A stretch of 64,000 nucleotides of DNA from Eledone cirrhosa (taxonomy: Eukaryota): the NCBI GenBank assembly GCA_964016885.1, contig OZ024745.1:27466001-27530000 (forward strand), given 5' to 3'. The translations under genes and the position numbers were made by a program. The notes below the pieces were generated by a model that worked only from the letters and a program-made list of their open reading frames with translations, ran no database searches and was not told where the DNA came from. Shown here one piece after another: positions 34,977 through 64,000 of this stretch. Within the stretch, counting starts at the first letter, position 1. Each line of letters starts with the position of its first letter.

Positions 34977-35049
<73 letters not shown>

Positions 35050-38296: not shown

Positions 38297-38339
<43 letters not shown>

Positions 38340-38654: not shown

Positions 38655-38830
38655 AAGACACAGAAGAAGTCAAAGGCACAGAAGAAGTCAAAGGCACAGA
38701 AGAAATCAAAGGCACAGAAGAAATCAAGGGCACAGAAGAAATCAAAGGCACAGAAGAAATCAAAGGCACAGAAGAAATCAAAGGCACAGAAGAAATCAAA
38801 GGCACAGAAGAAGTCAAAGGCACAGAAGAA
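38655..38830 (+). repeat. 18-bp minisatellite AAAGGCACAGAAGAA(G/A)TC, ~10 copies
   Basis: About 8 copies at 50765-50905. Confidence 0.9.
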
Positions 38831-39249
38831 GACAAAGAAAATGAACAAGAAGAACAATTATTATTACTATTATTATTGTTATTATTATTTGTATTATTAT
38901 AATCAAACTAAGCCACACTACATCAACCTATACCATACCACACCACACTGACAAACATTATACCATACCACATTATCCAACACCACACTATGAAACACTG
39001 TACGACCTCACATCAGACCATGCTATGAAACAATATACCATACTACATTATACAACAACAGACAGCACCACACAAGACTATGAAACACTATACTTTACCA
39101 CACTATATCACACCACTCAAGTTAGAGAGGATCAACTTTTTTCCTGGAAAATAGAAAACCTAACTTTAAGCTAAAAACGAACTTTAAAAATAACACTTAC
39201 CCTAACACTTGCACTCACACATGCTCTAACAGTGAACTTAGCGCTAACA

Positions 39250-41250
39250 TGAAAACTAACACAAACACAAAATCTGAAAACTCACATTAAATAGAAAATG
39301 AACACAAACACTAACCTGAACACTAACACTAAAACTGACACTAACACTAACCTAAAACTAACACTACTGTAAACACTAACACTAACCTGAACACTTACAC
39401 TAAAACTAGCACTAAAACTAACACTACCATAAACACTAACACTGACCTGAGCACTAACACTAAAACTAACTCTAACACAAACACTAATCTGAAAACTGAT
39501 ACTAACCAGAAAACTAAGCTAACATTAACTTCAACACTAAAACAAACACTAACGCTAACAGAGATACTAACACAAATATTAACACAAAAACAAACACTAA
39601 CACAATCTCTAACTCTAACCTTAACACTAACACTAAAACTAACATTAACTTGAACACTAACTCTAACCTGAAAACTAAGCTAACATTAACCTGAACACTA
39701 ACATAAACACTAATGCTAACACTAACAGAAATACTAATGCTAACATTAACGCTAACCTTAACACAAAAACAAAGATTAACGCTAACACAATCACTAACAC
39801 TAATGGAAACATCAAACACTAATGCTAACACAAAAACAAATACTAATACTAACACAATCTCTAACACTAACCTTAACACTAAAACTAACATTAACTTTAA
39901 CACTAACCTGAACACTTACACTACAACTAACACTAACAGAAATACTAACACAAATATTAACACAAAAACAAACACTAACACAATCTCTAACACTAAAACT
40001 AACATTAACTTGAACACTAACACTAACCTGAAAACTAAGCTAACATTAACTAACACAAACACTCATGCTAACACTAACAGAAATACTAATGCTAACATTA
40101 ACGCTAACCTTAACACAAAAACAAAGACTAACGCAAACACAATCACTAACAGTAATGGAAACATCAAACACTAATGCTAACAGAGATACTAACACAAACA
40201 TTAACACAAAAACAAATACTAACACTAACACAAACATTAACACAAAAACAAATACTAACACTAACACAATCTCTAACACTAACCTTAACACTAAAACTAA
40301 CATTAACTTGAACACTAACACTAACCTGAACACTTACACTAAAACTAACACTAACCTGAACACTTACACTAAAACTAACACTAACAGAGATACTAACACA
40401 AATATTAACACAAAAACAAACACTAACACAATCTCTAACACTAAAACTAACATTAACTTGAACACTAACACTAACCTGAAAACTAAGCTAACATTAACCT
40501 GAACACTAACACAAACACTCATGCTAACACTAACAGAAATACTAATGCTAACATTAACACAAAAACAAAGACTAACGCTAACACAATCACTAACACTAAT
40601 GGAAACATCAGTCACTAATGCTAACAGAGATACTAACACAAATATTAACACAAAAACAAACACTAACACAATCTCTAACACTAACCTTAACACTAACATT
40701 AACACTTACACTAAAACTAACGCTACCATAAACAGTAACACAAACACTAACACTGATCTGAGCACTAACAGTAACACTAACACTACCATAAAAACTAACA
40801 CTAAAAAAAACACTAACACTAACCTGAACACTAACACTAAAACTAACACGAAAACTGATACTAACCAGAAAACTAAGCTAACATTAACCTCAACACTAAA
40901 ACCAACACTAACATTAACAGAAAAACAAAGACTAGCACTAACACTAATGGAAACACTAACACAAACATTAACACAAAATAAAACACTAACACTAATGGAA
41001 AAAATAACACTAACACTAAAACGAACACTAACACTAAAACTGACATTAACACGAACATTAACCTGAACACTATCACTAAAGCTAACACTACCATAAACCA
41101 CTAACCTGAGCACTAACACTAAAAGTAACACGAGCCCTAACCTGAAAACTAACACTAACCAGAAAACTAAGTCAACATTAACCTGAACTCTAACGCAAAC
41201 AAAAATGCTAACACTAATACAAAATCAAACACTAACACGAACACTACTGG
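39250..41250. repeat. ACTAAC-based hexamer array with 325-490 bp higher-order units
   Basis: ATGCTAACACTAACAGAAATAC recurs at 39713, 40065, 40521 and 52022, 52508, 52874, 53199. Confidence 0.88.
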
Positions 41251-43100
41251 AAACACTAACGCCAATGCTGACACTGAAGAAGATGGCTATGCTGGCACAA
41301 ATGCTAGAGCAAATGTTGACACAATCGCTTATGCTGACACAAACACTCACGTGAATACTGATGCAGGTGCAAAGGCGAATCCTGACAAAGATTCTGACGC
41401 ACACGCTGATGTAAATGCTACACAGACTCTAACGCTGATGTGGACACTGACACAGATGCTCATGCTGATATAAAAAAAGCAAATGCAGACATTAATGCAA
41501 ACACAGACGCAAATGTTGATGCAGATGTTAAAGCAAACGCAAATGCTGACGCAAACGATGACAGCGATGCTAATGTGAACCTTAACGCAGACGTAAACAT
41601 TGACGTAGAAGCTAAAGGAAACACTAATGCAAACACTAATGAAAATGCTGACGCAGACGCTGACACACGTTAACACAGATGCTAACGTAAACACTGATAC
41701 AGATGCTAACACACGTTGACACAGACGCTAACGGAAACGATGACGCAGACGCTAACGTAAACGATGATGTAGAAGCTAACGTAAGCGCTGACACAGATGC
41801 AAATGTAGATGTAAATACAGACACTGACACAGACGCTGACGTAGAAGCTAACACAAACGCTGACACAGACACTAATGTAAGCGCTGACGTAGAAGCTAAT
41901 GTAGATGCTGACGTAGAAGCTAACGTAAATGATGACGTAGATGTTAATGTAGACGCTGACGTAGAAGCTAACGTAGATGCTGATGTAGAAGCTAACGTAA
42001 ACGCTGACGTAGAAGCTAACAAAACTCTGACGTAGTTGTTACGTAGAAGCAGGCGTAGAAGTTAGCGTTTACCCTTACCGCCGAAGCTGATCTCCAAAAC
42101 GCAATTGCTGATGCGGATTGCTGAAGCCAAAGCCAAGCTAACGCTGACGCAAATGTTGAGGCAGTATTGCCGGGCGCTGACGTGTATGCTGACGCTAATG
42201 CAAATGCTGATGCGGACGCTAGGGCTAAGGCTAATGCTTACGCTAGGGCTAAGGCTAACGCTGACGCAAATGCTGAAGTTAACGCTTACATGGGATATGC
42301 AGACGCTGCAATGATGCGGACGCCACAGGAAAGGTTAATGGAAACGCCAATGCTAACGGAAAACGCTGACGCAGACGTTACGGAAACGCTGACGTAGAAG
42401 CTAACGTAAATGCTGACACAGACTCTAACGTAAACGCTGACACAGATGCTAACGTAAACACTGACGTTAACTGAAACGCTGACGCTGATGTAGATGTAAA
42501 TACTGATGCTGACACAGACGCGGTCGGAAACGCTGACGTAGAAGCTAACGGAAACACTGACAGAGATGCTAACGGAAACGCTGACATAGAAGTTACGTAC
42601 ACACAGACACAGACACTAACGGAAATGCTGACAAAGACGTTAAAGGAAACGCTGTCGCAAACGCTAATGCTAATGTGAATGCTGATGCAGATGCTGACGC
42701 AAATGCTAACCACTACACAAATGCAAACACTGACTCAAACACTAATGCAAATGCTGACGTTCACGCTGATGAAACCGCTGACACTGACAGAAGTGCTGAC
42801 GCGGACGCTAATGATAATGCTGACTCAGAAGCTGACGTAGACGCAGGCACTGAAACAAACACTAATGTTGACTCAGACGCTAAGGGAAATGCTGATACAA
42901 TCACTATCTATCACCAGTGCAGACGCTGACGCAAATGCTGACACTTACGCAAACACTAACGCAGATGCTAACACCAGTCTACATAGACACTAACACAAAA
43001 GCTTACATAGACGCTTATGCAAATGCTAACGCTGATGCAGACAGTAACGCAAACAGTAACTGTAAGAGTTACAGTAACGCTAACAGTGACAGTAATGCTA
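41250..43100. repeat. GCTGAC/GCTAAC-based CpG-rich hexamer array (copy 1 only)
   Basis: Includes a 24-bp unit GCTGACGTAGAAGCTAACGTA(A/G)A(C/T) at ~41880-42020. Confidence 0.85.
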
Positions 43101-43549
43101 ACAGTAACACAATCACTAACAATAAACTTACCATTAACAGTAAAACTTACCGTAACACTAACCCTAAATCTAACATTAATCCAGAGAAAAAAGTCATCTT
43201 AAGATATAGAAGATAGGCATTACATTTTAATGATTTTAATTTAAAGAGAAGCACGCTATACGATGCAACACAATAACACACCCCACCACACCACACTAAC
43301 CTACACTACACCAAACCAGATTATACCATACCTTGGTAAATTTATGATAGGTTTCCATGTTATAACTACACCAAACCAAACCACACCATAACAAACTACA
43401 CCATACTACATCACACCATGCTATTGAACTCAGTGTGAAAAATTTTCTTCCTGCTTTTTTTGTGTTTGTGCTTACCACCCAATCTGACATTAAAAGTGTT
43501 CGCAATTAACTATTTTTTGCACATATTATCAATGAAGACTTTGAAACCC

Positions 43550-46500
43550 GTTGAAAATGACTAGCTTTGTAGAAAAAAGAGGGAGGATGTGGGTGGAAAT
43601 ACCATTTACAAAGCTAGTCATTTTTGATTGCAGCGGAAGTCATATTTTTTGTTAATATGCTAAAACCATAGTACACTGCAAGCATCTTGGAAGTTGTATT
43701 AGTTGATAGCACATGCAAAAGTGAAGGAAACATTTTTTTCTTACATAAATCAAAGTGGAAATTTAATTCCTTACTTATAACAAAGCACACCACACCACAC
43801 CACATTAATCTACCCCAAACCACACCATATCAAACAGCACCATATTATGGTAAATTTATTACAGAACACCTACTCTTATCATTTACATCACACCATGGTA
43901 TGGATATCAATGTGACAAATTTGCTACCTGCTATTTTTTTTTGTGGTTACCACCCAAACTAACATCAAAGGTGCTTGCAAATGACTATTTTCCCACCTTA
44001 TCAATGAATATGACATGGGAATCTATCGTTTAGAATTGGTTTCCATTTCATAACTTAACCAAACCACACCACACCACACCATACTACATCACACCAAGCT
44101 ATTGATCATGGTGTGAACATTTTTTTCCCATTTCCTTTTTTTTTTCTGTGTGCTTACCACCCAATCTGACATGAAAGGTGCTCCCAATTTACTTTTTTTT
44201 TCACATATCAATAATAATGACATGGAAACCTGTCGAAAATGACTATCTATGTAGAAACTTCACCAAACCACACCATACTACATCACACCAAGATATTGAT
44301 TTTGGTGTGACAAATTTTCATCTGGCATTTTTTTTTTTTTTTTTTTTTTGTGCTTACGACGCAATTTGACAAAAGGTGCTCGCAAATTACTATTTTATGC
44401 ACATATTATCAATGGTTATGACATGGAAACCTGATGAAAATGACTAGCTTTGTAGAAAAAAGAGGGAGGATGTGGGTGGAAATACCATTTACAAAGCTAG
44501 TCATTTTTTATTGCAGCGGAAGTCATATTTTTTGTTAATATGCTAAAACCATAGTACACTGCAAGCATCTTGGAAGTTGTATTAGTTGATAGCACATGCA
44601 AAAGTGAAGGAAAAATTTTTTTCTTACATAAATCAAAGTGGAAATTTAATTCCTTACTTATAACAAAGCACACCACACCACACCACATTAATCTACCCCA
44701 AACCACACCATATCAAACAGCACCATATTATGGTAAATTTATTACAGAACACCTCTTATCATTTACATCACACCATGGTATGGATATCAATGTGACAAAT
44801 TTGCTACCTGCTATTTTTTTTTTTGTGGTTACCACCCAAACTAACATCAAAGGTGCTTGCAAATGACTATTTTCCCACATTATCAATGAATATGACATGG
44901 GAATCTATCGTTTAGAATTGGTTTCCATTTCATAACTTCACCAAACCAAACCAAACCACACCACACCACACCATACTACATCACACCAAGCTATTGATCA
45001 TGGTGTGAACATTTTTTTCCCATTTCCTTTTTTTTTTCTGTGTGCTTACCACCCAATCTGACATGAAAGGTGCTCCCAATTTACTTTTTTTTTCACATAT
45101 CAATAATAATGACATGGAAACCTGTCGAAAATGACTATCTATGTAGAAACTTCACCAAACCACACCATACTACATCACACCAAGATATTGATTTTGGTGT
45201 GACAAATTTTCATCTGGCATTTTTTTTTTTTTTTTTTTTTTGTGCTTACGACGCAATTTGACAAAAGGTGCTCGCAAATTACTATTTTATGCACATATTA
45301 TCAATGGTTATGACATGGAAACCTGATGAAAATGACTAGCTTTGTAGAAAAAAGAGGGAGGATGTGGGTGGAAATACCATTTACAAAGCTAGTCATTTTT
45401 GATTGCAGCGGAAGTCATATTTTTTGTTAATATGCTAAAACCATAGTACACTGCAAGCATCTTGGAAGTTGTATTAGTTGATAGCACATGCAAAAGTGAA
45501 GGAAAAATTTTTTTCTTACATAAATCAAAGTGGAAATTTAATTCCTTACTTATAACAAAGCACACCACACCACACCACATTAATCTACCCCAAACCACAC
45601 CATATCAAACAGCACCATATTATGGTAAATTTATTACAGAACACCTCTTATCATTTACATCACACCATGGTATGGATATCAATGTGACAAATTTGCTACC
45701 TGCTATTTTTTTTTTTGTGGTTACCACCCAAACTAACATCAAAGGTGCTTGCAAATGACTATTTTCCCACATTATCAATGAATATGACATGGGAATCTAT
45801 CGTTTAGAATTGGTTTCCATTTCATAACTTCACCAAACCAAACCAAACCACACCACACCACACCATACTACATCACACCAAGCTATTGATCATGGTGTGA
45901 ACATTTTTTTCCCATTTCCTTTTTTTTTTCTGTGTGCTTACCACCCAATCTGACATGAAAGGTGCTCCCAATTTACTTTTTTTTTCACATACCAATAATA
46001 ATGACATGGAAACCTGTCGAAAATGACTATCTATGTAGAAACTTCACCAAACCACACCATACTACATCACACCAAGATATTGATTTTGGTGTGACAAATT
46101 TTCATCTGGCATTTTTTTTTTTTTTTTTTTTTTGTGCTTACGACGCAATTTGACAAAAGGTGCTCGCAAATTACTATTTTATGCACATATTATCAATGGT
46201 TATGACATGGAAACCTGATGAAAATGACTAGCTTTGTAGAAAAAAGAGGGAGGATGTGGGTGGAAATACCATTTACAAAGCTAGTCATTTTTGATTGCAG
46301 CGGAAGTCATATTTTTTGTTAATATGCTAAAACCATAGTACACTGCAAGCATCTTGGAAGTTGTATTAGTTGATAGCACATGCAAAAGTGAAGGAAAAAT
46401 TTTTTTCTTACATAAATCAAAGTGGAAATTTAATTCCTTACTTATAACAAAGCACACCACACCACACCACATTAATCTACCCCAAACCACACCATATCAA

Positions 46501-46998
46501 ACAGCACCATATTATGGTAAATTTATTACAGAACACCTCTTATCATTTACATCACACCATGGTATGGATATCAATGTGACAAATTTGCTACCTGCTATTT
46601 TTTTTTTTGTGGTTACCACCCAAACTAACATCAAAGGTGCTTGCAAATGACTATTTTCCCACATTATCAATGAATATGACATGGGAATCTATCGTTTAGA
46701 ATTGGTTTCCATTTCATAACTTCACCAAACCAAACCACACCACACCACACCACACCATACATCACACCAAGCTATTGATCATGGTGTGAACATTTTTTTC
46801 CCATTTCCTTTTTTTTTTCTGTGTGCTTACCACCCAATCTGACATGAAAGGTGCTCCCAATTTACTTTTTTTTTCACATATCAATAATAATAACATGGAA
46901 ACCTGTCGAAAATGACTATCTTTGTAGAAACTTCATCAAACCACACCATACTACATCACACCAAGATATTGATTTTGGTATGACAAATTTTCATCTGG

Positions 46999-47031
<33 letters not shown>

Positions 47032-48600
47032 TGCTTACGACCCAATTTGACAAAAGGTGCTCGCAAATTACTATTTTATGCACATATTATCAATGGTTAT
47101 GACATGGAAACCTGATGAAAATGACTAGCTTTGTAGAAAAAAGAGGGAGGATGTGGGTGGAAATACCATTTACAAAGCTAGTCATTTTTTATTGCAGCAG
47201 AAGTCATATTTTTTGTTAATATGCTAAAACCATAGTACACTGCAAGCATCTTGGAAGTTGTATTAGTTGATAGCACATGCAAAAGTGAAGGAAACATTTT
47301 TTTCTTACATATATCAAAGTGGAAATTTAATTCCTTACTTATAACAAAGCACACCACACCACACCACATTAATCTACCCCAAACCACACCATATCAAACA
47401 GCACCATATTATGGTAAATTTATTACAGAACACCTACTCTTATCATTTACATCACACCATGGTATGGATATCAATGTGACAAATTTGCTACCTGCTATTT
47501 TTTTTTTGTGGTTACCACCCAAACTAACATCAAAGGTGCTTGCAAATGACTATTTTCCCACCTTATCAATGAATATGACATGGGAATCTATCGTTTAGAA
47601 TTGGTTTCCATTTCATAACTTAACCAAACCACACCACACCACACCATACTACATCATACCAAGCTATTGATCATGGGTGTGAACATTTTTTTCCCATTTC
47701 CTTTTTTTTTTTCTGTGTGCTTACCACCCAATCTGACATTAAAGGTGCTCCAATTTACTTTTTTTTTCACATATCAATAATAATGACATGGAAACCTGTC
47801 GAAAATGACTATCTTTGTAGAAACTTCACCAAACCACACCATACTACATCACACCAAGATATTGATTTTGGTGTGACAAATTTTCATCTGGCATTTTTTC
47901 TTTTTTTCTTGTGCTTACCACCGAATTTGACATAAAAGGTGCTCGCAAATTACTATTTTATGCACATATTATCAATGGTCATGACATGGAAACCTGATGA
48001 AAATGACTAGCTTTGTAGAAAAAAGAGGGAGGATGTGGGTGGAAATACCATTTACAAAGCTAGCCATTTTTTATTGCAGCGGAAGTCATATTTTTTGTTA
48101 ATATGCTAAAACCATAGTACACTGCGAGCTTCTTGGAAGTTGATAGCACATGCAAAAATGAAGGAAAAATTTTTTTTCTAACATCAAAGTGGAAATCTAA
48201 ATCCTCACCTATAACAAAGCACACCACACCACATTAATCTACCCCAATCCACACCATATTAAACAGCACCATATTATGGTAAATTTATTACAGAACACCT
48301 ACTCTTATCATTTACATCACACCATGGTACGGACATCAATGTGACAAATTTGCTACCTGCTTTTTTTTTTTTTTTGTGGTTACCACCTCAAACTAACATC
48401 AAAGGTGCTTGCAAATGACTATTTTCCCACACATTATCAATGAATATGACATGGGAATCTATCGTTTACAATTGGTTTCCATTTCATAACTTCACCAAAC
48501 CAAACCACACCATACCAAGTTACACCATACTACATCGCACCAAGCTATTGATCTTGGTGTGAAACATTTTCTTCCCGTTTCTTTTTTTTTTTTCGTGTGA
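43550..48600. repeat. ~890-bp tandem satellite, ~5.7 copies
   Basis: Equivalent positions 43614, 44497, 45389, 46281, 47178, ~48058. Confidence 0.95.
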
Positions 48601-48616
48601 CAAAATCTGACATTAA

Positions 48617-51600
48617 CATAACACCCAAAATATTTTCCTCATCTTTTTTTCATGTGTTATCAACTTATCCGAACTCCAAGATGTTTGTTATTGACTCTCT
48701 CATCATGGAAAACTTAGGTCGATGCACTTCTCTCATTTAACCCCAGAGTTTTCTCATGTTATCAACGAATATGACCTCCAAACCAGTTGGAAATGATTAG
48801 TTGTTCTATGAAAAAGGAGGTGTAAAGTAGGTGGAAAAACCATTGTCGTTTTGTAGATATATACCCTAATGATTTTTCTTCGGTCTCCTTTTGAGTGCTA
48901 TCAACTAATCTGACCTTTTAGTTGATCTGAATCAATTTTTTTTTTCTAGGATTTGTAAACTAAATTAAACATAAAATTAAATCTAGCCCCAGCCCTAAAC
49001 TCTAAATCTAAACCAAACCAAGCTAAATCTAAATATAAACATTACCCCAACCCCTAAAATTTACCCAAACCCTAAAACTAGACCCTAAACATTACCCCAA
49101 CCCTAAAACTAAACCCTAAACTTTACCCCAACCCTAAAGCTAAACCCTAAACTTTACCCCAAACCTAAAATAAACCCTAAACTTTACCCCAACCCTAAAA
49201 CTAGACCCTAAACATTACCCCAACCCTAAACCTAACCCATGGAAATAAGTTGATTGGAAGCATCTAGGAGGTCAGATTAATTAATAGCACACAAAATAGC
49301 ATAGGAAATAGCACAGGAAATATACCGAAAATGATTAAGTCCCACAACATGTGAGTGGGGTGTAGATCTGCAAAACTCTTTCCCTCTCCTCTTTCTCCAA
49401 AGCTAGTTGTTTTCGACTCGTTTGGAAGTCATATTCACTGATAACGCATGAAAATAGAATCAAAGAGAAAATTCCGAGTAAGCAGGGGTTATCCGGGTGA
49501 AGGGGGAACCACCTCATCCCGCCGTTTTCCTGGGTGGAAAAAGTCAGTTTCAAGCATCTTGGAGATTGGATTAGTTGATAGCACATGAAAAATAGGATGA
49601 AAAAATTTCACATCACATCACATCACGTCTCGTCTCGTCTCATTTCACCACGCCATGCCACATTTCATCACATCACATCACATTTCACCATGCCACACCA
49701 CATCACATTTCACCACGCCACATCACATCACATGCCATCACACCACATGCTACCACACTACATCCCACCACACTCCACTACACCATATCCCCCACCCTAC
49801 ATTGAACCACACCACTGTCCACTACACTAAACCACACTCCACGACACGACACCACACCACACTACACCACACCACTGTCTATTCGACTGTTTTCTATTTC
49901 GTAGGTATGTCCAGTTACAGTAAGAGAAAGAAAGTTATTTCAAAGGATCTGAGTAAGTAAACACTTCATTGACCATCATTTTAAGCAGAATCTCGGTGTA
50001 GTTTTAAATTGACCTTTTCATATGATTACACCTCAGTCTTAACTTAATCACCTGGAGATGGATGCTACATGTAATGTTAAAATTAGTTAAACACTGTTTC
50101 CCCCTTCTCATCACATGTGGATGCTAGATGTGTATTGTTAACATTAATCTAACGTTGTCCCCCCCCCCCCCGCCTCACCATATCATACCACACCACATCA
50201 CACCATGTTGTACCACACCAGACAACATAACACCATGCTATACCATATATATATGAGCTCCCCACTCGTTATATTAACTGTATCTCCTCGGTGTTTCGTG
50301 AAAGTCTGAGAGATCAGCTATATATTTGTTTACAATTTTTTTTTATATTTAGATGGAAAAGAAGAAAAAGACGACGAAGCAGACGACTAAAATGAAAATG
50401 ACAACAAAGACAAAGAAGACACGGGAAACGAAGATGACGAAAAGAAGAAAGTATGATCTCAGTTCAGTCTAAACCTAATGATTTATAGATATGATCTTAG
50501 TTCAGCCTTAACCTAATGACCTGTAGATACGATCTATTTAGGTTTAACTTAAACATTCAAAGATATTTGTATATACTTTTGTTAATGTTTGACATTGTTT
50601 TTTAGTTATGAAATAGCTTATAAGCTACATTATAGGATCACAATGCATGAGCACACTGCTCTTTAAATTAACTTTATCTCCTCAGCACTTTGTAAAGTCT
50701 GGGAGATAAGCAACATATGTTTTACATTCTTTGTTTTTGGTATTTAGATGGCAGAGGAGAAGATAAAGACACAGAAGAAGTCAAAGGCACAGAAGAAGTC
50801 AAAAGCACAGAAGAAGTCAAAAGCACAGAAGAAGTCAAAGGCACAGAAGAAGTCAAAAGCACAGAAGAAGTCAAAAGCACAGAAGCAGTCAAAAGCACAG
50901 AAGAAAACAAAGAAAATGAACAAGAAGAACAATTATTATTACTATTATTATTGTTATTATTATTTGTATTATTATAATCAAACTAAGCCACACTACATCA
51001 ACCTATACCATACCACACCACACTGACAAACATTATACCATACCACATTATCCAACACCACACTACGAAACACTGTACGACCTCACATCAGACCATGCTA
51101 TGAAACAATATACCATACTACACTATACAACAATAGACAACACCACACAAGACTATGAAACACTATACTTTACCACACTATATCACACCACTCAAGTTAG
51201 AGAGGATCAACTTTTTTCCTGGAAAGTAGAAAACCTAACTTTAAGCTAAAACCAAACTTTAAAAATAACACTTACCCTAACACTTGCACTCACACATGCT
51301 CTAACAGTGAACTTAGCGCTAACATGAAAACTAACACAAACACAAAATCTGAAAACTCACATTAAATAGAAAACTAACACAAACACTAACCTGAACACTA
51401 ACACTAAAACTGACACTAACACTAACCTGAACACCAACACCAAAACTAACACTACTGTAAACACTAACACTAACCTGAACACTAGCACTAAAACTAACAC
51501 TACCATAAACACTAACACTGACCTGAGCACTAACACTAACACTAACACAAAAGTAACACTAGCACAAACACTAATCTGAAAACTGATACTAACCAGAAAA

Positions 51601-54600
51601 CTAAGCTAACATTAACTTCAACACTAAAACAAACACTAATGCTAACAGAGATACTAACACAAATATTAACACAAAAACAAATACTAACACTCACACAATC
51701 TCCAACACTAACCTTAACACTAAAACTAACATTAACTTGAATACTTACACTAAAACTAACACTAACAGAGATACTAACACAAATATTAACACAAAAACAA
51801 ATACTAACACTAACACAATCTCTAACACTAACCTTAACACTAAAACTAACATTAACTTGAACAATTACACTAAAACTAACACTAACAGAGATACTAACAC
51901 AAATATTAACACAAAAACAAACACGAACACAATCTCTAACACTAAAACTAACATTAACTTGAACACTAACACTAACCTGAAAACTAAGCTAATATTAACC
52001 TGAACACTAACACAAACACTCATGCTAACACTAACAGAAATACTAATGCTAACATTAACGCTAACCTTAACACAAAAACAAAGACTAACGCAATCACTAA
52101 CACTAATGGAAACATCAAACACTAATGCTAACAGAGATACTAACACAAATATTAACACAAAAACAAATACTAATACTCACACAATCTCCAACACTAACCT
52201 TAACACTAAAACTAACATTAACTTGAATACTTACACTAAAACTAACACTAACAGAGATACTAACACAAATATTAACACAAAAACAAATACTAACACTAAC
52301 ACAATCTCTAACACTAACCTTAACACTAAAACTAACATTAACTTGAACACTTACACTAAAACTAACACTAACAGAGATACTAACACAAATATTAACACAA
52401 AAACAAACACGAACACAATCTCTAACACTAAAACTAACATTAACTTGAACACTAACACTAACCTGAAAACTAAGCTAATATTAACCTGAACACTAACACA
52501 AACACTCATGCTAACACTAACAGAAATACTAATGCTAACATTAACGCTAACCTTAACACAAAAACAAAGACTAACGCTAACGCAATCACTAACACTAATG
52601 GAAACATCAAACACTAATGCTAACAGAGATACTAACACAAATATTAACACAAAAACATATACTAACACTAACACAATCTCTAACACTAACCTTAACACTA
52701 AAACTAACATTAACTTGAACACTTACACTAAAACTAACACTAACAGAGATACTAACACAAATATTAACACAAAAACAAACACGAACACAATCTCTAACAC
52801 TAAAACTAACATTAACTTGAACACTAACCTGAAAACTAAGCTAACATTAACCTGAACACTAACACAAACACTCATGCTAACACTAACAGAAATACTAATG
52901 CTAACATTAACGCTAACCTTAACACAAAAACAAAGACTAACGCTAACGCAATCACTAACACTAATGGAAACATCAAACACTAATGCTAACAGAGATACTA
53001 ACACAAATATTAACACAAAAACATATACCAACACTAACACAATCTCTAACACTCACCTTAACACTAAAACTAACATTAACTTGAACACTAACCTGAACAC
53101 TAACAGAGATACTAACACAAATATTAACACAAAAACAAACACTAACACAATCTCTAACACTAAAACTAACATTAATCTGAACACTAACACAAACACTCAT
53201 GCTAACACTAACAGAAATACTAATGCTATCATTAACACAAAAACAAAGACTAACGCTAACGCAATCACTAACACTAATGGAAACATCAATCACTAATGCT
53301 AACAGAGATACTAACACAAATATTAACACAAATATTAACCCAAAAACAAACACTAACACAATCTCTAACACTAACCTTAACACTAAAACTAACATTAACA
53401 CTTACACTAAAACTAACAAAAATTCAGAGAAAAAAGTCATCTTAAGATATAGAAGATAGGCATTACATTTTAATGATTTTAATTTAAAGAGAAGCATGCT
53501 ATACGATGCAACACAATAACACACCACACTAACCTACACTACACCAAACCAGATTATACCATACCTTGGTAAATTTATGATAGGTTTCTATGTTATAACT
53601 ACACCAAAGCAAACCACACCAAAGCAAACCACACCATAACAAACTACACCATACTACATCACACCATGCTATTGAACTCAGTGTGAAAAATTTTCTTCCT
53701 GCTTTTTTTGTCTTTTTTTGTGTTTGTGCTTACCACCCAATCTGACCTTAAAAGTGTTCGCAATTAACTATTTTTTGCACATATTATCAATGAAGACTTT
53801 GAAACCTGTTGAAAATGACTAGCTTTGTAGAAAAAAGAGGGCGGAAAGTGGGTGGAAATACCATTCACAAAGCTTGTCATTTTTGATTGCAGTGAAAGTC
53901 ATATTTGTTGTTAATATGGTAATGGAGGTACATGGCTTAGTGGTTAGAGCATTGGCCTTGCAATCGAAAGGTTGTGAGTTCAATTCTCAGACCAGGTGGT
54001 GTGTTGTTTCCTTGAGCAAGACACTTTATTTCACATTGCTCCAGTTTACTCAGCTGTAGAAATGAGATAATAGGGACCCCAGTCCCTATCATTCCACTGC
54101 AAAGTGGTCGTGTAGGTGCCACGGCAAAAACCACCCAGCACACACTGTAAATGAGGTTGGTGTTAGGAAGGGCATCCAGCTGTAGAAATCCAGCCAGAAT
54201 CAGTTCCCGTCCCACCCTTGCAAGCAGGGAAAAGTGGACGTAAAATGATGATGATGGTAAAAGCATAGTCGGCTGTGAGCATGTTGGAGGTTGGAAAACC
54301 ATACCACATTAAACTACACCATACCAAACTACACCATACTACATCACACCATGCTATTAATATCAGTGAGAACATTTTTCTTCCTGTTTTTTTTTTTTTC
54401 TGTATGGGTGGTAAGCACACACACACACAATCTGATATCAAAGGTGCTCACAAATGACTATTTTTTTACACATTATCAATGTATATAACATGGAAACCTA
54501 TCATTTGCAATAGGTTCCCATGTCATAACTACAACAATCCAAACTACACCATTCTACATCACACCATGCTTTTGATCTCAGTGTGAAAAATTTTCTTCCT

Positions 54601-56160
54601 GTTTTTTTTTTTTTTTTTTGTGTGTGTGTTCTTACCACCCAATCTGACATCAAAGGTGCTGCAATTGACTATTTTTCGCACATATTATCAATAATTATGA
54701 CATGGAAGACTGTCTAAAATGACGAGCTTTGTAGAAAAAAGAGGGAGGATGTGGGTGGAAATACCATTTACAAAGCTAGTCATTTTTTATTGCAGCGGAA
54801 GTCATATTTTTTGTTAATATGCTAAAAGCATAGTCCACTGCGAGCATCTTGGAAGTTGTATTAGTTGATAACACATGCAAAAGTGAAGGAAAAAAATTTT
54901 TTCTTACATAAATCAGAGTGGAAATTTAATTCCTTACTTATATCAAAGCACACCACACCACATTATCCTACTCCAAACCACACCATATCAAACAGCACCA
55001 TATTATGGTAAATTTATTACAGAACACCTACTCTTATCATTTACATCACACCATGGTATGGACATCAATGTGACAAATTTGCTACCTGCTTATTTTTTTT
55101 TTTTTTGTGGTTACCACCCAAACTAACATCAAAGGTACTTGCAAATGACTATTTTCCCACATTATCAATGAATATGACATGGGAATCTATCGTTTAGAAT
55201 TGGTTTCCATTTCATAACTTCACCAAACCAAACCACACCATACCAAGTTACACCATACTACATCACACCAAGCTATTGATCTTGGTGTGAACATTTTTTT
55301 CCTGTTTCCTTTTTTTTTTTCTGTGTGCTTACCACCCAATCTGACATTAAAGGTGCTCCCAATTTACTTTTTTTTTCACATATCAATAATAATGACATGG
55401 AAATCTGTCGAAAATGACTCTTTGTAGAAACTTCACCAAACCACACCATACTACATCACACCAAGATATTGATTTTGGTGTGACAAATTTTCATCTGGCA
55501 TTTTTTTTTTTTTTTTTTTTTTTTGTGCTTACCACCGAATTTGACATAAAAGGTGCTCGCAAATTACTATTTTATGCACATATTATCAATGGTTATGACA
55601 TGGAAACCTGATGAAAATGACTAGCTTTGTAGAAAAAAGAGGGAGGATGTGGGTGGAAATACCATTTACAAAGCTAGCCATTTTTTATTGCAGCGGAAGT
55701 CATATTTTTTGTTAATATGCTAAAAGCATAGGCCACTGCGAGCTTCTTGGAAGTTGATAGCAGATGCAAAAATGAAGAAAAATTTTTTTTCTAACAAATC
55801 AAAGTGGAAATTTAAATCCTCACTTATAACATAGCACACCACAGCACATTAATCTACCCCAATCCACACCATAACCATACTTCACTATATGGTAAATTTA
55901 TTACAAAACACCTACTCCTACCATTTACATTACACCAATGCTCGCAGTTGACTATTTTTTTCACATATTATGAATGAATATAACTTTGAAACTTATCGCC
56001 AATGATTAGCTTTGTAGAAAAATGAAGGCAGAAAGTGGGTGGAAAAACCATTCACAAAGCTAGTCATTTTTAATTGCAGTGGAAATCATATTTGTTGTTA
56101 ATATGCTAAAAAAATAGTCAATTGCAAGCATTTTGGAGGTCGGATTAGTTGATAGGACAT
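48617..56160 (+). repeat. Segmental tandem duplication, copy 2 (lacks the GCTGAC array, fewer 890-bp units, extra SINE)
   Basis: Colinear with 36393-48616. Confidence 0.85.
53923..54253 (+). mobile_element. Full-length SINE family A with 7-bp TSD
   Basis: A-box TGGCTTAGTGG, B-box GTTCAATTC, (ATG)n tail; TSD ATGGTAA at 53916-22 and 54254-60. Confidence 0.92.
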
Positions 56161-56314
56161 AAAAAAACAAAGGAAAACAAATATTGTCTATATGTTCCTG
56201 TGGAAAGTCAGGTCTTCTGTATTACTGTGTGACGCCAGAGGTTATGGTCATGTGTCATTGCCCTTGAGAGGTGCAATTGGGAAAGGTTGGCTTAGAAAAT
56301 TTACTTCTGCGTTC

Positions 56315-56394
56315 ACAGATTGATTTTTTTTTTAGTTTCAGAAGATCCCATTCAGGGTGAAAGCAACCGATTCTTTGCTTAAACTTTAATCTGT
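56315..56394 (+). ncRNA. Putative type I hammerhead ribozyme with variant core CAGAAGA
   Basis: Stem I ACAGATTGA[T10]AGTTT / AAACT-TTAATCTGT; stem II CCC/GGG; GAAA; stem III GCAA/TTGC; predicted cut after 56380. Confidence 0.62.
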
Positions 56395-56669
56395 TATTTT
56401 AATAAATATTTGCTCTATGGTTCTTATATATTTGATATATATTTATCCTTATCGAGCCCTCTTTGGATGTTAGTCTTCAAATTTATTATTATTACTATTT
56501 GGCTCCCTTGACTTATATTCATCATGAAGAAACATCTGAATATTTCTACAAAGAACATACCCGTACCAAGCAGGAAGAAATACCTAAAACTACGTCTCTA
56601 CGAACCAAAGTATCGCCTTCCTGTCTTCCTTCGGTTGCAACGTTTTTTGAAATATTTACTTCTGCGTTC

Positions 56670-56750
56670 ACAGATTGATTTTTTTTTTTAGTTTCAGAAG
56701 ATCCCATTAAGGGTGAAAGCAGCCGATTCTTTGCTTAAACTTTAATCTGT
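56670..56750 (+). ncRNA. Putative type I hammerhead ribozyme, second copy
   Basis: Same fold; differences only in loop II, bulge length and an A-U to G-U pair in stem III; predicted cut after 56736. Confidence 0.62.
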
Positions 56751-56875
56751 TATTTTAATAAATATTTGCTACGGTTCTTATATAATTGATATATATTTAT
56801 CCCTATCGAGCCCTCTTTGGATTTTAGTCTTTATATGTATTATTATTACTATATATGTGTGTGTGTATATATATT

Positions 56876-57245
56876 GAGAGCATTGGCCTTGCAATCGAAA
56901 GGTTGTGAGTTCAATTCGCACACCGGGTGATGTGTTGTTTCCTTGAGCAAGACACTTTATTTCACATTGCTCCAGTTTACTCAGCTGTCGAAATGAGATG
57001 ATAGGACTGGGGTCCCTATCATTCCACTGCAAAGTGGTCGTGGAGGTGCCACGGCAAAAAAGCACCCAGCCCACACTGTAAAGTGGATGTGGAGGTGCCA
57101 CGGGAAAAAAGCACCCAGCACTCACTGTAAATGAGGTTGGTGTTAGGAAGGGCATCCAGCTGTAGAAATCAAGCCAGAATCAGTTCCCGTCCCACCCTTG
57201 CAAGCAGGGAAAAAGTGGACGTAAAATGAAATGATGATGATGATG
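56876..57245 (+). mobile_element. SINE family A (5'-truncated, internal subrepeat duplicated)
   Basis: Matches 9681-10000 and 53923-54253; (GAT)n tail. Confidence 0.9.
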
Positions 57246-57247
57246 AA

Positions 57248-57570
57248 TGCTCCCAGCTGTGGTCACCCCATAGTATCAAACTAACCATGGAGCTTGAAGC
57301 AATCCAATGAAGCTACACCAAGAAGGTTGCCACGATGAAGGAGATAAACTACTGGGAGAGTCTAAAAGAACTGAAACTCTACTCCTCGGAATGAAGACGG
57401 GAGAGATATGCAATGATATACATATGGAAAATCCTGGAGGGACTAAGACCAAACTTTCGCATTGAGAGCTGGACCAATTCTCGAACAGGACGTCACTGTG
57501 TGGTACCAAAGGTCCCGTCTTCCACATCTAGAATCAGGAGCAGCTATTGCAATAGCCTGGGGTTTGGCCC
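57248..57570 (+). mobile_element. CR1-group LINE 3' fragment
   Basis: Homologous to 60434-60985 (YWESLKELKLYS, IYIWKILEGL, YCNSLGF). Confidence 0.7.
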
Positions 57571-57647
57571 TCAACTTGGTTTTCAAAATTTAAATTTGTG
57601 TTTCCTATTCATCAATGCTTCAAGCAAGCTATAAAACTGTTATATTT

Positions 57648-58018
57648 CATCATCATCATTTTATGTCAGTTCTTCTACGCTAGCATGGGTTGTCCTGTTG
57701 TGGGCAGTGTCCAGTTGGCTGACCTTGTCTTGCTCATACGGGAACTGATTCTGTCTTGATTTCTACAGCTGGCTGCCCTTCCTAACACCAACCTCATTTA
57801 CAGTGAGTGCTGGGTGTTTTTTTTTTTTTTTTTTTTTTTTTCCAGTGGAATTATAGGGACCCCAGTCCTATCATCTCATCTCATTTCTACAGTTGAGTAA
57901 ACTGGAGCAATGTGAAATAAAGTGTCTTGCTCAAGGAAACAACACATCACCCGGTCCGGGAATTAAACTCACAACCTTTCAATTGCAAGCCCAATGCTCT
58001 AACCACTGAACCATGTGC
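57648..58018 (-). mobile_element. SINE family A in inverted orientation, with an RTE-type tail
   Basis: Reverse-complement head at 57850-58018, AGGAAGGGCA motif ~57775, (CAT)n at 57648. Confidence 0.8.
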
Positions 58019-58019
58019 C

Positions 58020-59005
58020 TTCTATTGTTGGCAATGTTAGGTCAGGTGACCATGTCTTGCTCATAAAGAACTGATTTTGGCTTGGTTTCTACAGCTGGAT
58101 GCCCTTCCTAATGCCAAGCTCATGAGTACTGGGTGTTTTTTGTTGTGATTCCTCCACGACTACTTTACAGTGTAGACTGGGTGTTTTTTACCGTGTCACC
58201 ATCACGACCACTTTACAGTGTTTCGGCCTGTTCTCATGAAAGATATATTGGCGGGTGGGATGGGGTGGTGCATACTGTATGTATGTTTCAGCCTTGGCCT
58301 GGGCCCGTGGGAAGTTGAGGTTTCTGTATTACCTCATAACGCCAGAGATCTTGGTGCTGTGTCATTGCCTTTCAGGGGTGCAACTGGGCAAGGTCGGCTT
58401 TTATCACTTCATCTGGGACTTTATGTCGCTGTCATCCTTCATATGCATCACATGTCCATACCAATGTAATCTCCTCTCTTGCACACAGCATTTAATTCCT
58501 CTTATGCCTAGTTTCTCTTTCAGTTTGTTTATGCTTTGCTGTTCGCGTATATTACTATTACACATCCATCGGAACATACAAGCTTCATTCCTTTCTAATC
58601 TACGCAAGTCTTCTACACACAGCGCCCAGCTCTCACTACCATGTAACATTGCCGTTCATATGCACACATCATACAGTCTACCTTTTATTCTGAGGGAAAA
58701 GCCTTTTGTATCCAGCTGTGGCAGTAGCTCCCTCAACTTCTTCCATCCCGTTCTTTCAGAACCCCCCCCCCCCCCCCCCCCCCCTCCGCTGCTAATTCGG
58801 TATTGTTTTTACCAAGTCCTCTCAGACTTTGATGTCACTTGTTTTCAGTGATTGTTTGCTGCTTACTGTCCTGGTGCAACTGCTACATGTAAAGCCTACA
58901 TTCTTAATTAAACTTCCTGAGATCCCACTACATCTCTTGTGTACCCATAGTTTGCATATGGGGCAGAGGATGGAGTTTCTACCTACACCTCTCCTACATA
59001 ATGAG
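58020..59005 (-). mobile_element. RTE 3' fragment of the PHD-insert family
   Basis: CSLCRRGVGRNSILCPICKLWVHKRC...FTCSSC; MLHGSESW...RLERNEA...RRLHWYGHV; 3'UTR. Confidence 0.85.
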
Positions 59006-59057
59006 CACACACACACACACACACATATATATACACACACTCACATATATATATATA

Positions 59058-60130
59058 CTAGCCGAATTACCAGCGCCTTGCTGCGTTTCACACATTTTTT
59101 TGTAAGAAAATGATGATTGATTTTAAATCAGTGATATAATTTATGGAGAAAAACTCAATATTGCTCAATGTAAAATTTAATGCATGAAAAATAGGAAAAC
59201 ATTATTTTTTGTAATATATCAAATCAAAATTGCATTATTAAATCTTATTCTTATTTTGTTTCTTGTAAATAATTTTTTTCAAAATATCAATTGAAAACTT
59301 TTGTGAATAGGCATCATATCTTCTCATTTACCTATGGTTTAAGTTTCATATAAATCGAAAGGGAAAAGTTTTCAGCGGGGGGTTTGTACCCCCGGGAACC
59401 CTAATAGGGGGTTTAACCACCATTAAGGTGTCTTATAGTATTGAAATTTTGTGAATAGGCATCATATCTCTTCATTTATCTATGGTTTAAATTGCATATA
59501 AATCTAACCAAAAATTTTCAGCGGGGATTTTGTGCCCCCTGGTGAACCCTAATAGGGGGTTTAACCCCCATCAGGGTATTGTAATTTTATTGAACTTTGC
59601 TGAAATGATGTGAATAGGCATCATATCTTGTTTACCTATGGTTTAAATTGCATATAAATCGAAGGGAAAACATTTTCAGCAGGGGTTTGTGCCACCGGTG
59701 AACCCTAATAGGGGGTTTAACCCCCATTAGGGTATTTTAATTTTATTGAAATTTGCTGAAATTTTGTGAATAAGCATCATATCTTGTCATTTACCTATGG
59801 TTTAAATTTCATATAAATCGAAGGTAAAGTTTCAGTGGCGGTTTTGTGACCCCGATGAACCCTTTGATTAAAATGAAATATACTTATACAAGTACCCTGG
59901 GCAATGTAGTTTCAGAATATATATGGTTATGGGGGTCTATCTCCAAAACCATAGGAGGAGTTCGTAAAATCTTGTTCCATTTATTGGCCAAACTTTTCAC
60001 GATAGGGAGTTTAACCCCCATTAGGGTGTCTTAATATTATTGAAATTTGCACACACACATCACACATATATATATATACACACAAACACACACACATATA
60101 TATATGTACACACACACACATATTTATATC
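59058..60130 (-). mobile_element. Non-autonomous Helitron-like element with ~150-160 bp internal tandem repeat
   Basis: Minus strand ends with hairpin CAGC-AAGGC-GCTG, ~9 nt, then CTAG|T; four subunits at ~59302, 59450, 59610, 59765. Confidence 0.6.
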
Positions 60131-60433
60131 TTTTAGCAGAGCATTTTAATATTGCCACTCAATGAAAACCATTTGTTTGGAATAAATGAATCTTAAAAAA
60201 TAGGAGTGTTTGTCTACTTAGCACCAATTTACTACCCTCCCCTACCACCAGAAAATGTATAAATACCACCATATTACTTTGACAGTTGGCTTTTCTGATG
60301 ATTTCCCCCGAATGAAACAGTTCTAGTCCTGTTGAAGCCATTTCTATATTAAATATATATATATATACTCTTTTAGCTGTTCCAGCCATCTGGCTGAGAC
60401 CATGATTGGGCACTGCCCTTGTTGCTACATATT

Positions 60434-60985
60434 CTATCTCCAGCCTGTGTTGGCTGGCCATTGATGTAAGAGGGAGTTCGTTGCTGCTGCCCTTAGGTTA
60501 CCTTTGTACCGTGATGTGGGCTCATCCAGGATCCTGGATAACAGGGTGTCGAAAAGTTTCTTGAAAATATCCACGGCCACACCATGTAGATCTCTCAAAT
60601 CCCTCGGCAGTTTGTTGAAGAGTTGAGGGCCTTTGAACCCCAGTCTATTGCAATATCTGCTTCTTGTTCTAGATGTGGAAGACGGGACCTTTGTCACCAC
60701 ACAGTGACGTCCTGTTCGGAGGTTGGTCCCGCTCTCAATACCAAAGTTTGGCGCTAGTCTCTTCAGGATTTTCCATATGTATATCACTGCGTATTTCTCC
60801 CGTCTTCGTTCCAAGGAGTAGAGTTTCAGTTCTTTTAGCCTCTCCCAGTAGCTCATCTCCTTCATCGTGCAATCCTCTTGGTGTAGCTTCGTTGGATTGT
60901 CTCAAGTTCCGTGGTTAGTTTGATACTATGGGGTGACCACAGCTGGGAGCAATAGTCCAGGCGGCTTAGGACAAATGGCCTTCAT
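60434..60985 (-). mobile_element. CR1-group LINE 3' fragment
   Basis: MSYWERLKELKLYSLERRRE...GPQLFNKLP...RAAATNSL. Confidence 0.75.
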
Positions 60986-61214
60986 AGTATCAACATGGTC
61001 TCCCAGTCTCTTATATAGAAAACCTCAAGTAAAAAGTCAAGATTTGTTTCGATTTAACAGAGCAGAAAGAATTCGCGTCAGAATATTCCAACCAATCCAG
61101 CCTATATCAGCTGAATAAATATGTATATGGAGATATATATATACACACCCACATGCACATATATATATATACACACACGCACACACACATATATATACAT
61201 ACACACATACATAC

Positions 61215-61840
61215 ATGATGGCTGCCCCCTCGTTATCGAGTATGGCCATTGCACGATATACCATTATTAATAATTATTAATTAATTCTATCGTGCAATGC
61301 CTGTGCATGAAGATATTTTTTTAAATGAGGAAAGACTGTGCACTGAGCCAATCCCACTCTCTGAGCAACAGTAGCTATAACCCGAAAAGAAGAAAATATC
61401 AATATCATCGGTAACTACTGAGCCGCAGGTTTTATATCGGAGTTATCCCAGTTTCCTGAGTTGCCTTCTCCTAGAAGAATGCCCTGACAAAGGCTAGGGG
61501 TCCTTCACTCCCAGTGGTTTAACCGCGCAATCGGGTGTCCAGCCCGATTATTTCTATGTCCCCGCGCATGTACATACACATGCACCCATGTATATACACA
61601 TATACATATACATACATATGTACATGTGTATATACATATTTACACACTTTTGGATGGCCGTTGACTCTTATGAGATCTTCTGCCCTTTGTCAGGTTTTGT
61701 CTTTTGTCCTGCAGGGTGTCCAAAATCACCCCCCTCACCAAGTAAACTTGGTGGGGTTGCCGGGTTAGTCGCCGACGACCCGACCATGCGACAGGTTGTA
61801 CTGGGTTACATGTTACCAATAGCACTCAAGAGTGACCCGA
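61215..61840 (-). mobile_element. Putative non-autonomous RTE derivative (5'UTR-like part plus 3' end), split by a microsatellite
   Basis: Minus strand has CTAGGAGAAGGCAACTC (RTE 5' motif) and a 3' end ATGGCCATACTCGATAACGAGGGGGCAGCCATCAT resembling the end of the adjacent LINE. Confidence 0.5.
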
Positions 61841-61862
61841 CATACATACATACATACTACAT

Positions 61863-64000
61863 AATGGCTGCAAACTCGTGTTCAAGTATTGCCATCGCCC
61901 GATAAAATGTTCAAAAATGTGACTCTTTAAACCAGCGAAATACTTGCACCCTCTGGCACACACATGGCAACTTTAGGTTCCCCTGAAACCTTCCATTGCT
62001 TTGTTCTGGCTGTATGTTCACATGTATCTTTTAAGACCTCCCATGCTTGTACATTTCTTGCACCTTTTCAGATCATGATCTACATGAGGTCTACTGATAT
62101 GACTTTGTTCATGTCTAATCAAACCAGCTTTGCTCAGGCTGACTCGACCACAGTGCTGGCAAACCAGATGATGTTCAACAGCAGGCAGTTCAGAACAGTC
62201 TCAATCCTCACCTTCTTTTTCAGTGTTAGGTGTTCTCTCTGACGAGTTTCAAAGTGTTCATCACCTGACTTGATCAAACGTCTCCACTTCACACGCTCGT
62301 CAGCCATTTTCTTCCATTCGTCAGATGAAATTCTAGCAGAAACCAAGGTGCCTCTGATACAGTCATGGTACCGCCTTTTTGGTTTATGTGGTGGTCGCCT
62401 TCCTTCACACAGTTCTCCATAGAGAAGTTGCTTTGGAATACGATCATCAGACATCCGGACCACGTGACTGCACCACCTCAACCAATACCGAAAGATTTTG
62501 CTCTCTATAGTCATGCACCTGCTCCGTTCTAGAACTTCCAAATCACTGGAGGACATTTTCCACCTCACCCCAAGTAACTTATGAAGAGATTGTTGGTGAA
62601 ATCTCTCCAGATCCTTGAGGTGCTTTCTGTATGTGACCCACGTTTCACAAACATAAAGTAAAGAGGAGACGACACAAGTCAGATACACTTTCACCTTGGT
62701 TTCGATAGTGATACCTCGTCTGGACCATAAACGTTGATGCAGCCGTCCAAAAGCATCACTGGCTTTCTTGATTCTTAAGGATATTTCATTATCATGTGTG
62801 CATGAAGTGTTCAAGGTAAACAAACTTGTCAGCAACTTTTAGCCTCTTTCCGTACACGTACACACTTGGTGCAGTGTACTCGTTTCCAGGTACTGGATGA
62901 TACATCTCAACAGTCTTTTCCAAGCTTATTGTGACGCCCAAAGTGCTGCAAGCTGCAGAAAAAGAGTTCATAATATGCTGCATGTCACTTTGTGAGTGTG
63001 CAAAAAGATCGCAGTCGTCTGCATACAAAAACTCTCGGATTATAGATGTTAATACCTTTGTGCTTGTACCAAAGTGCCTGGTGTTGAACAACCTTCCTGA
63101 AGTGCAATACCTGATATAAACCCCATGAGAACAATATTTGAATGCCATGAGAAACACTATCGTAAAATATGAGGAAAACAGAGTTGGAGCCGGAATGTCT
63201 CCCTGCTTTACTCCATTTTCAACTGATATTGGTTCAGAGATGCTACCACCAATACTGACCAAAGCCTTCATGTCATCATGGAAAAGATGCAGAATCTTCT
63301 ACCCTACCTTGGATTTTTTTCCCACAAAGCAGTTCGATTGACAGTGTCAAAGGCCTTTGTCAAGTCAACAAAGACCTGGTAAAGGTCCATATATTGTTCG
63401 ATACACTTTTCTTGCAGCTGCCGAGCAAAAACGATCATATCCACTGTTCCTCTTTCGTTTCTGAACCCACACTGCGACTCAGGCAACACATTCAGAGCAA
63501 CTCTTGGGACCAATCTATCCATCAATATTTGACACGACTTTACCAACTACTGAAAGAAGGGATATGACATGATAATTGCCACATTTGTCCTTGCCGTCCT
63601 TTCCTTTATGTAGAATCACCATGAGCGCATCCTTCTTGTGGGACATTCTCATCTTCCCACACCATTTTCATGAGGTCAGTCAGGCGCTGCGTGAAGTTTT
63701 CACCACCACACTTCAAAACCGCTCCACTCAGACCATCCATACCAGGAGACGTACCACAGTTCAGCTTATGCACAACAGAAGTCCCCTCTGCAAGAGAAGA
63801 TACATTAGCCATCTCATATGCTTCACTGGTTCAATAGGAATGGAACAAATGAAATCATCATCAACCTGGGATGGTTGGTTTAAGAGCTCGTCAAAGTGAT
63901 CTCTTATCTGTCGAGTGTCTTTTGGGTCGCGCAGTAATTGCTTGCCATCTTTCGATCTCAAAGGGGCCACTGGAGAGCTGAAAGGGCCTTACACCTCTGT
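61863..64000 (-). mobile_element. RTE/BovB-like LINE, degraded, running off the right edge
   Basis: LPESQCGFR, FVDLTKAFD, GVKQGD, LYADD, RMSDDRIPKQLLYGEL; C-terminal C2H2 remnants; (TATG)n tail. Confidence 0.9.

Follow-up and report, generated by a model that had tools for sequence, protein, structure and literature searches.

A Penelope-like remnant with paired A4 hammerhead motifs, carried inside a large TIR transposon in Eledone cirrhosa

The role of hammerheads in Penelope-like elements (PLEs) is an open question. One PLE hammerhead acted with the help of protein and could be dispensed with for in vitro insertion (PMC11167929), PLE hammerhead motifs cleave at low rates in vitro (PMC4209133), and PLE promoters are internal, lying within the pLTR (PMC2377424, PMC6765202). 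In the Hydra clade (PMC8557442; Hydra-1_aJap, Penelope-n_HM, Hydra-1_Obim), a single ORF of ~700 aa has RWK-like and DKT motifs together with a CxCX5C linker and a C-terminal endonuclease with CxxC and CxH, insertion is in (TA)n, and the pLTR hammerhead often has U10.1-U11.1. Metazoan non-LTR retrozymes have a ~350-nt period, low GC (PMC7229834; Li et al. 2026) and one type I hammerhead per unit, their circles are described as highly self-paired (PMC7229834), and their link to pLTRs is already published (10.64898/2026.07.22.740005; PMC7229834). Within the catalytic core, U4 contacts the A6-N7 phosphate (PMC3088659). Single mutants of CUGA showed low activity in a pairwise scan, where no rescue was found within CUGA except by a C3-G8 swap (PMC9901934). 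In a viroid, the U4C variant has weak activity in vitro and is nevertheless sufficient in vivo (PMC3088659).

We analyzed a 64,000-nt stretch of the Eledone cirrhosa genome (contig OZ024745.1, positions 27,466,001 to 27,530,000; hereafter the window), in which a sequence-only reading had proposed a 356-nt retrozyme-like unit derived from a PLE and bounded by two hammerheads with a CAGAAGA core. That the unit originated as a PLE remnant and is carried in a DNA transposon is, in our estimate, very probable. The full reading that we favor, with some reserve, is of a passive remnant in its carrier, whose A4 hammerhead is selected, likely still folds, and has probably been weakened in its cutting rather than made inactive. 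The features concerned are as follows.

23378..23404 (+): left 27-bp TIR of the carrier, preceded by an 8-bp target duplication (7/8 match)
23378..64000 (+): carrier, a non-autonomous, Merlin-like TIR transposon, 42,332 bp here, later LINE and Tc1 insertions included (from the shared block and TIRs)
56297..56498 (+): upstream pLTR copy of a Hydra-clade PLE, 5'-truncated (from the repeat comparison)
56315..56394 (+): first of the two type I hammerhead motifs (core 56339-56345, with A4 at 56340), cleavage predicted after 56380
56334 (+): base equivalent to the precise 5' end of many free copies, the predicted capped start, 5 nt before the core
56499..56523 (+): short PLE 5' UTR, from the pLTR tail to the ATG
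56524..56591 (+): first 22-23 codons of the PLE RT-endonuclease ORF
56591..56592 (+): junction between ORF start and 3' UTR, with about 2.9 kb of the parent absent; the same in all carrier copies
56592..56852 (+): downstream pLTR copy with long tail and (TA)n end
56670..56750 (+): second type I hammerhead motif (core 56695-56701, with A4 at 56696), cleavage predicted after 56736

At first inspection the unit has the parts that had been described for it. Two direct repeats of ~200 nt (about 56297-56498 and 56653-56852) each contain a CAGAAGA core, at 56339 and 56695, and a CUU cut site (NUH); the two H17 positions, 56380 and 56736, are separated by 356 nt. In both motifs, stem I consists of 5+9 bp with a one-sided T10/T11 bulge, as claimed, and stem II is CCC/GGG with a closing U10.1-U11.1 mismatch, followed by GAAA and stem III. 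The type I three-stem junction is present with C3-G8, G5, A6, A9, GAAA, U16.1 and H17; only position 4 departs from it, being A at 56340 and at 56696, while every other core base is canonical. The replacement of U4 in both motifs is thus real. The order of parts is pLTR, a 25-nt UTR, 22-23 codons, the single junction 56591/56592, and pLTR. From the ATG at 56524 the peptide is identical to the parent ORF described below at 20 of 22 residues, which bears out the PLE-like N-terminus that had been proposed; the frame continues into non-coding pLTR and stops at 56689-56691. Pfam gave no match for the 55-aa window peptide, for the pieces of the parent ORF or for two of its homologues.

Of the complete hammerhead fold that had been claimed, the sequence elements are all there; the minimum-energy structure is a different one. 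In ViennaRNA, the hammerhead conformer of the window repeats lies ~4.5 kcal/mol above the minimum, in which the U-tract is predicted to pair with the core, and the proximal part of stem I has a pairing probability of 0.05-0.10. Natural U4 copies fold alike, so that the penalty is not specific to A4. An Rfam scan of 55500-57700, a check proposed with the original claim, returned no hammerhead family even at E<=5. The suggested contact between the U-rich bulge and the A-rich loop II found no support, since the length of the bulge varies freely and the bulge would be missing from RNAs starting at the mapped 5' end.

Comparison with sibling copies showed that the unit does not end where it seemed to. 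The limits 56300..56851 had been taken for element ends; both flanks are common to sibling loci over many kilobases, and ten of ten 20-kb loci match the window over ~55-60 kb. The shared block terminates sharply in a 27-bp inverted repeat. We extended eight loci leftward: in the window and at four of these, both ends were found, with 27-bp TIRs and 8-bp duplications in 5/5 carriers (three perfect, two with one mismatch), and the remaining four showed no paired left end in the sequence retrieved. The right TIR of the window copy lies outside the window, ending 1,709 nt beyond it (C5:27531709). The other carriers lie at C4:185.19-185.22 Mb, C1:392.48-392.50 Mb, C2:36.34-36.37 Mb and C3:72.92-72.95 Mb, and lengths range from 23.6 to 42.3 kb. 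A segmental duplication as the carrier is ruled out by the TIRs and target duplications. Merlin elements have TIRs of 24-462 bp starting with GG and target duplications of 8-9 bp (PMC8101967), and, judged by its ends only, the carrier appears Merlin-like; no Pfam match to DDE_Tnp_IS1595 was found in 27 ORFs of the window or adjacent to it.

The cargo, 89-94% identical among copies, comprises satellites, SINEs, LINE pieces and the PLE remnant. This carrier copy alone has further insertions at window 26316-27332 and 27721-33335 (-), with a Tc3-like transposase ORF and LINE RT fragments. The satellite arrays have units of about 890 bp and of 12-18 bp. Also inside the carrier, at window 35907-35963 (+), is a canonical CTGAAGA Hydra-type hammerhead of another family, with an inverted partial copy near 35640-35670. 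Outside it are two ORFs with C2H2 zinc-finger arrays (window 8426-9469 and 19728-20855, -); these arrays and the SINEs have an octopus-like appearance. Window 1-8000, of low GC and strong skew, is probably a satellite array.

A DNA search of the 3.0-Gb genome with the window unit gave 3,451 candidates, of which 40 were scored. For the flank analysis of 40 loci, eight overlapping duplicates were dropped and four near-identical C5 loci kept. A strict left-flank test was passed by 38 of the 40 loci, and the other two passed a second flank test. Shared carrier flanks at all 40 examined loci indicate that the unit spread as DNA cargo. From a subtype-specific pattern with 166 matches (69 loci among the first 100), we estimate that the carrier is present at roughly 115 or more loci.

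This result bears directly on the proposal that the unit is an independently mobile miniature non-LTR retrozyme, with a 356-nt monomer that circularizes and spreads through RNA. Its size and tandem layout do fit such retrozymes (PMC7229834), which have been proposed to derive from pLTRs (10.64898/2026.07.22.740005). Short units in tandem, with a type I hammerhead in each, are present in 37 of 40 loci, as 2-4 motifs at 334-417 nt spacing, with 3-4 motifs at 10/40, and mini-units with different junctions occur outside the carrier at seven other loci (L074, L075, L076, L082, L100, L122, L273). However, every examined copy with the 56591/56592-type junction shares the carrier flanks, none of 85 sampled free copies of the family is of the carrier subtype, and the arrays retain the layout of truncated repeat and tail, with a maximum of four motifs. 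The differences between copies had been said to spare the pairing; across 66 sibling copies, substitutions are about equally frequent in the core (8/723), stems II/III (15/924) and loop II (6/330), the even pattern of carrier copies decaying neutrally. Moreover, the 356-nt monomer circle has no folding advantage over shuffled sequences (z -0.36) and is 48% paired, unlike the highly self-paired monomer of a retrozyme. We regard independent mobility as the least probable of the readings weighed here. What stands of the retrozyme-like miniature PLE derivative is its origin from PLE pLTRs; at the examined loci the unit sits inside a TIR transposon and did not move on its own.

The parent family could be read from longer copies. 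At L066-L069, two pLTRs ~3.26 kb apart surround decayed ORF pieces in a partial tandem (pLTR-ORF-pLTR), and the ORF begins with the sequence of the window peptide. The motifs RWR, DKT and YRDDG are present in the ORF pieces of L067, L068 and L071, with RWK/DKT in homologues; the CxCX5C linker, CxxC and CxH of a C-terminal GIY-YIG-type endonuclease were located by eye in L068 and L069 and are invariant in a protein alignment. There are 102 database protein homologues of ~700 aa, with 33-44% identity to the parent ORF. Nearly all of the 85 sampled free copies end in (TA)n. Judged by these sequences, the parent is a Hydra-clade PLE with RT and GIY-YIG-type endonuclease motifs, inserted in (TA)n; the Penelope derivation that had been proposed for the unit holds, the parent motifs matching the description of that clade. 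The family comprises tens of thousands of independent copies: the 24-mer just past the cut site has 39,443 exact matches genome-wide. Inverted truncated-copy junctions are common among them.

Most PLE copies retain an intron in the 3' UTR, with donors seen in L067; in L256, L281 and L409, copies spliced in the 3' UTR show two GT donors and one AG acceptor. We considered the U-tract beside the core as a 3' splice site and rejected it: the acceptor lies ~143 nt upstream of the cut in these three copies. The same genome has four or more further repeat families whose hammerheads have canonical cores (L066 1100, L076 3067, L074 5731, L053 9296).

The definitive question for the core is whether A4 belongs to the family or to one copy. 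Exact-pattern matches genome-wide numbered 23,390 for A4 and 115 for U4, and the reversed control gave 0, which places the motif far beyond chance. At the free position N7, a slightly shorter pattern gave 335 matches for the three other bases, ~112 each; the U4 count is therefore that of the random-mutation background. A4 was also present in 63/63 free copies with intact upstream context in our 85-copy sample (85 distinct copies from 90 stretches that together cover the majority of the first 100 C1 matches, after removal of identical contexts). CAGAAGA is thus the family consensus, as the genome-wide search suggested by the sequence-only reading was to establish, and beyond that background the other copies do not carry CTGAAGA. 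A private mutation of one passenger copy is ruled out by the same 23,390 versus 115. Nor do the 115 CTGA matches represent a canonical parent family: of the 20 inspected, one old-subfamily copy (L092/L105) is a true U4, and the rest are palindromic inversion junctions or scattered point changes. At position 4, no letter besides A reached the 10% level in two sequencing runs of one study, which do not amount to independent support. The A4 pattern had 0 matches in viral contigs.

Of 35 aligned rows of an older subfamily, ~80% identical, 20 have A at this position and nine have T. One of these T rows is a clear U4; inversion junctions, a truncated copy or a misassigned young copy account for the rest. 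In a single comparison of column majorities (35 old and 22 young copies, found by motif similarity), both subfamilies are A4 and differ at 0/38 core and stem positions. In contrast, they differ at 6/13 loop and N7 positions (Fisher p=1e-4 against core and stem) and at 11/61 downstream positions (p=0.006). The changed motif positions are N7, loop II and loop III; the 11 other core bases and H17 are constant. These differences argue that the fold was selected while carrying A4. In an alignment of 21 sequences, 90% of cells are paired and two pairs show double changes, a number reached by 109 of 500 shuffles, so the argument for selection rests on conservation and not on covariation.

Outside the family, 77 metagenomic Hydra-type loci yielded the motif in 39: 37 U4, one C4, one G4 and no A4. 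All 26 Hydra rows of File S2 in PMC8557442 are CTGA, none A4. Present in both subfamilies and absent from these metagenomic and published Hydra hammerheads, A4 is derived and old within the lineage, and by the sequence comparison it is carried by source elements whose fold is under selection. Among the metagenomic Hydra-type loci, L212, L225, L186, L197 and L202 show the variant cores C4, G4, G3-C8 and U3-A8, as single copies that are possibly mutations. In the literature searched, figures and some supplements aside, we found no natural A4 hammerhead, and a prior report may exist.

Selection on the fold need not be selection on cleavage. With the same origin and carriage, the A4 motif might be catalytically dead and kept as a promoter or protein-binding fold at the RNA 5' end. 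The lost U4 contact (PMC3088659) and the low activity of CUGA mutants (PMC9901934) both point that way, as does insertion in vitro without cleavage (PMC11167929), and Naiads thrive without canonical hammerheads. Furthermore, the predicted transcript would have the hammerhead at +6 to +51, and the promoters of PLEs lie internally (PMC2377424); the conserved stretch is the first 50 nt of that transcript, and promoter or protein-binding constraint could explain part of the conservation. However, changes between the subfamilies fall only where a hammerhead is free, at N7, loop II and loop III, and a DNA promoter is not expected to follow the hammerhead's map of free positions. We consider a dead motif unlikely, though deserving of serious weight.

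The ends of free copies bear on how the RNA is used. In the 85-copy sample, seven copies start precisely at the A that lies 5 nt upstream of the core, ~25 within -37 to -50 of the cut, and one at the cut. Genome-wide, G precedes AGTTT in at least 1,451 matches and A or C in 1,155, where the template has T. On inspection, 30/30 matches with the extra G and 13/15 with A or C were true 5' ends, with varied upstream sequence. We take the AGTTT context to resemble an initiator. With this context, the extra-G ends, the location of PLE promoters in pLTRs and the analogy to LINE-1 and SVA, a capped transcription start is likely at the A of AGTTT, five bases upstream of the core and 46 nt upstream of the scissile bond. 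In those two families, an extra, untemplated G in front of a full-length 5' end has been interpreted as a copy of the cap (PMC4859970). The extra G could instead be an untemplated addition at a strong RT stop. Copies with the precise 5' end were in any case made from uncut RNA. At L346-L390 there are many head-to-head pairs of short copies, both starting at the predicted start site and separated by one to three bases, extra G included. At the other end, free copies stop at two tail positions, ~25 and 120 nt past the cut (equivalent to window 56409 and 56498); two RT start sites have likewise been described for the anole PLE.

A pile-up of 5' ends at the cut site was sought and not found: the T preceding the cut is missing from 795 of the 39,443 matches, and of 30 inspected ~18 were point changes and most others microhomology joins. 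The result is uninformative, as a canonical-core family in the same genome has cut-site starts in 0/27 copies; missing cut-site starts thus do not show weak activity.

Opposite to the dead motif is a fully compensated, fast A4 ribozyme, whose cleavage would be a regulated step, for example a brake that decaps most transcripts. Purifying selection on the fold is what it would predict, a stable stem III of 4-5 bp would allow monomeric activity, and C4 and G4 each occur singly among Hydra relatives. Yet no compensating change is visible, pairwise mutagenesis argues against rescue within CUGA by anything except the C3-G8 swap (PMC9901934), and the RNA templates of thousands of copies had retained the 5' end along with an uncut motif. 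A fast ribozyme is in our judgment highly improbable. From the published mutant, viroid and PLE data, the A4 hammerhead is predicted to cut slowly or only with protein help.

The history of the remnant reads as follows. One PLE copy lost about 2.9 kb, by either a DNA deletion or an RT template jump, and was left with two pLTRs 350-400 nt apart in a TIR element of 24-42 kb. The unit multiplied as DNA along with its carrier and at some loci expanded to 3-4 motifs. The parent, for its part, would be transcribed by Pol II from the capped start 5 nt before the core; RT would begin at one or the other of the two tail sites, which lie past the scissile bond, and would copy uncut RNA, often back to the cap. 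Since a fast ribozyme cutting at +46 would strip the cap, a weakened A4 core may have been tolerated or even favored, its fold being kept by selection. A bolder version, which we put forward tentatively and would not be surprised to see fail, holds that a cephalopod-type Hydra PLE lineage tuned its hammerhead down by U4A, with the ribozyme 46 nt from the cap and A4 both active and selected, and that tens of thousands of such motifs are missed by Rfam and CUGANGA descriptors. If this were true, hammerhead counts and the "invariant core" would both be wrong for such genomes.

The A4 family offers a natural test of what PLE hammerheads do: a core change damaging in vitro has become fixed in an element that ranks among the most successful of this genome, and the rest of the fold remains conserved. 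Naturally occurring U4 copies can serve for comparison, and the start site can be read from genomic fossils. It would also broaden the known hammerhead core and the descriptors used to search for it. For tandem-hammerhead screens there is a caution, in that a passive pLTR remnant can be mistaken for a retrozyme. The carrier, a TIR transposon of 24-42 kb that is non-autonomous and occurs at around a hundred loci, is a separate lead.

Known classes account for the locus throughout: a Hydra PLE, a type I hammerhead and Merlin-like ends. The parent family shares with the Hydra-clade PLEs of PMC8557442 the single ORF, RT and endonuclease motifs, (TA)n insertion and U10.1-U11.1 listed at the outset. 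It differs in having CAGA where the File S2 rows have CTGA, in a long stem III with a 7-8 nt loop, in a 1-kb 3' UTR with an intron, and in its tens of thousands of copies; Hydra-1_Obim as printed differs from it, in a by-eye comparison, in both N-terminus and hammerhead. With the non-LTR retrozymes of PMC7229834 and Li et al. 2026, the window unit has in common the ~350-nt period, low GC, one type I hammerhead per unit and a pLTR origin. Unlike the retrozymes described in PMC7229834, it has no independent insertions, keeps an ORF start, spread inside a DNA transposon, and has a non-canonical core and an unstructured monomer. The carrier shares GG-starting 27-bp TIRs and 8-bp target duplications with Merlin/IS1016 (PMC8101967), and unlike those elements as described there it is 24-42 kb long, non-autonomous, and packed with satellites and retroelement debris. 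The natural core variants named in the text of PMC3088659 and PMC4209133 are rare tolerated changes (U3-A8, A6C, U4C, U10.1-U11.1); A4 is not named among them, and here it is fixed across subfamilies in more than 23,000 copies. As far as our searches reach, the new elements are a natural A4 core throughout a family, its place just behind a likely cap, and a giant carrier.
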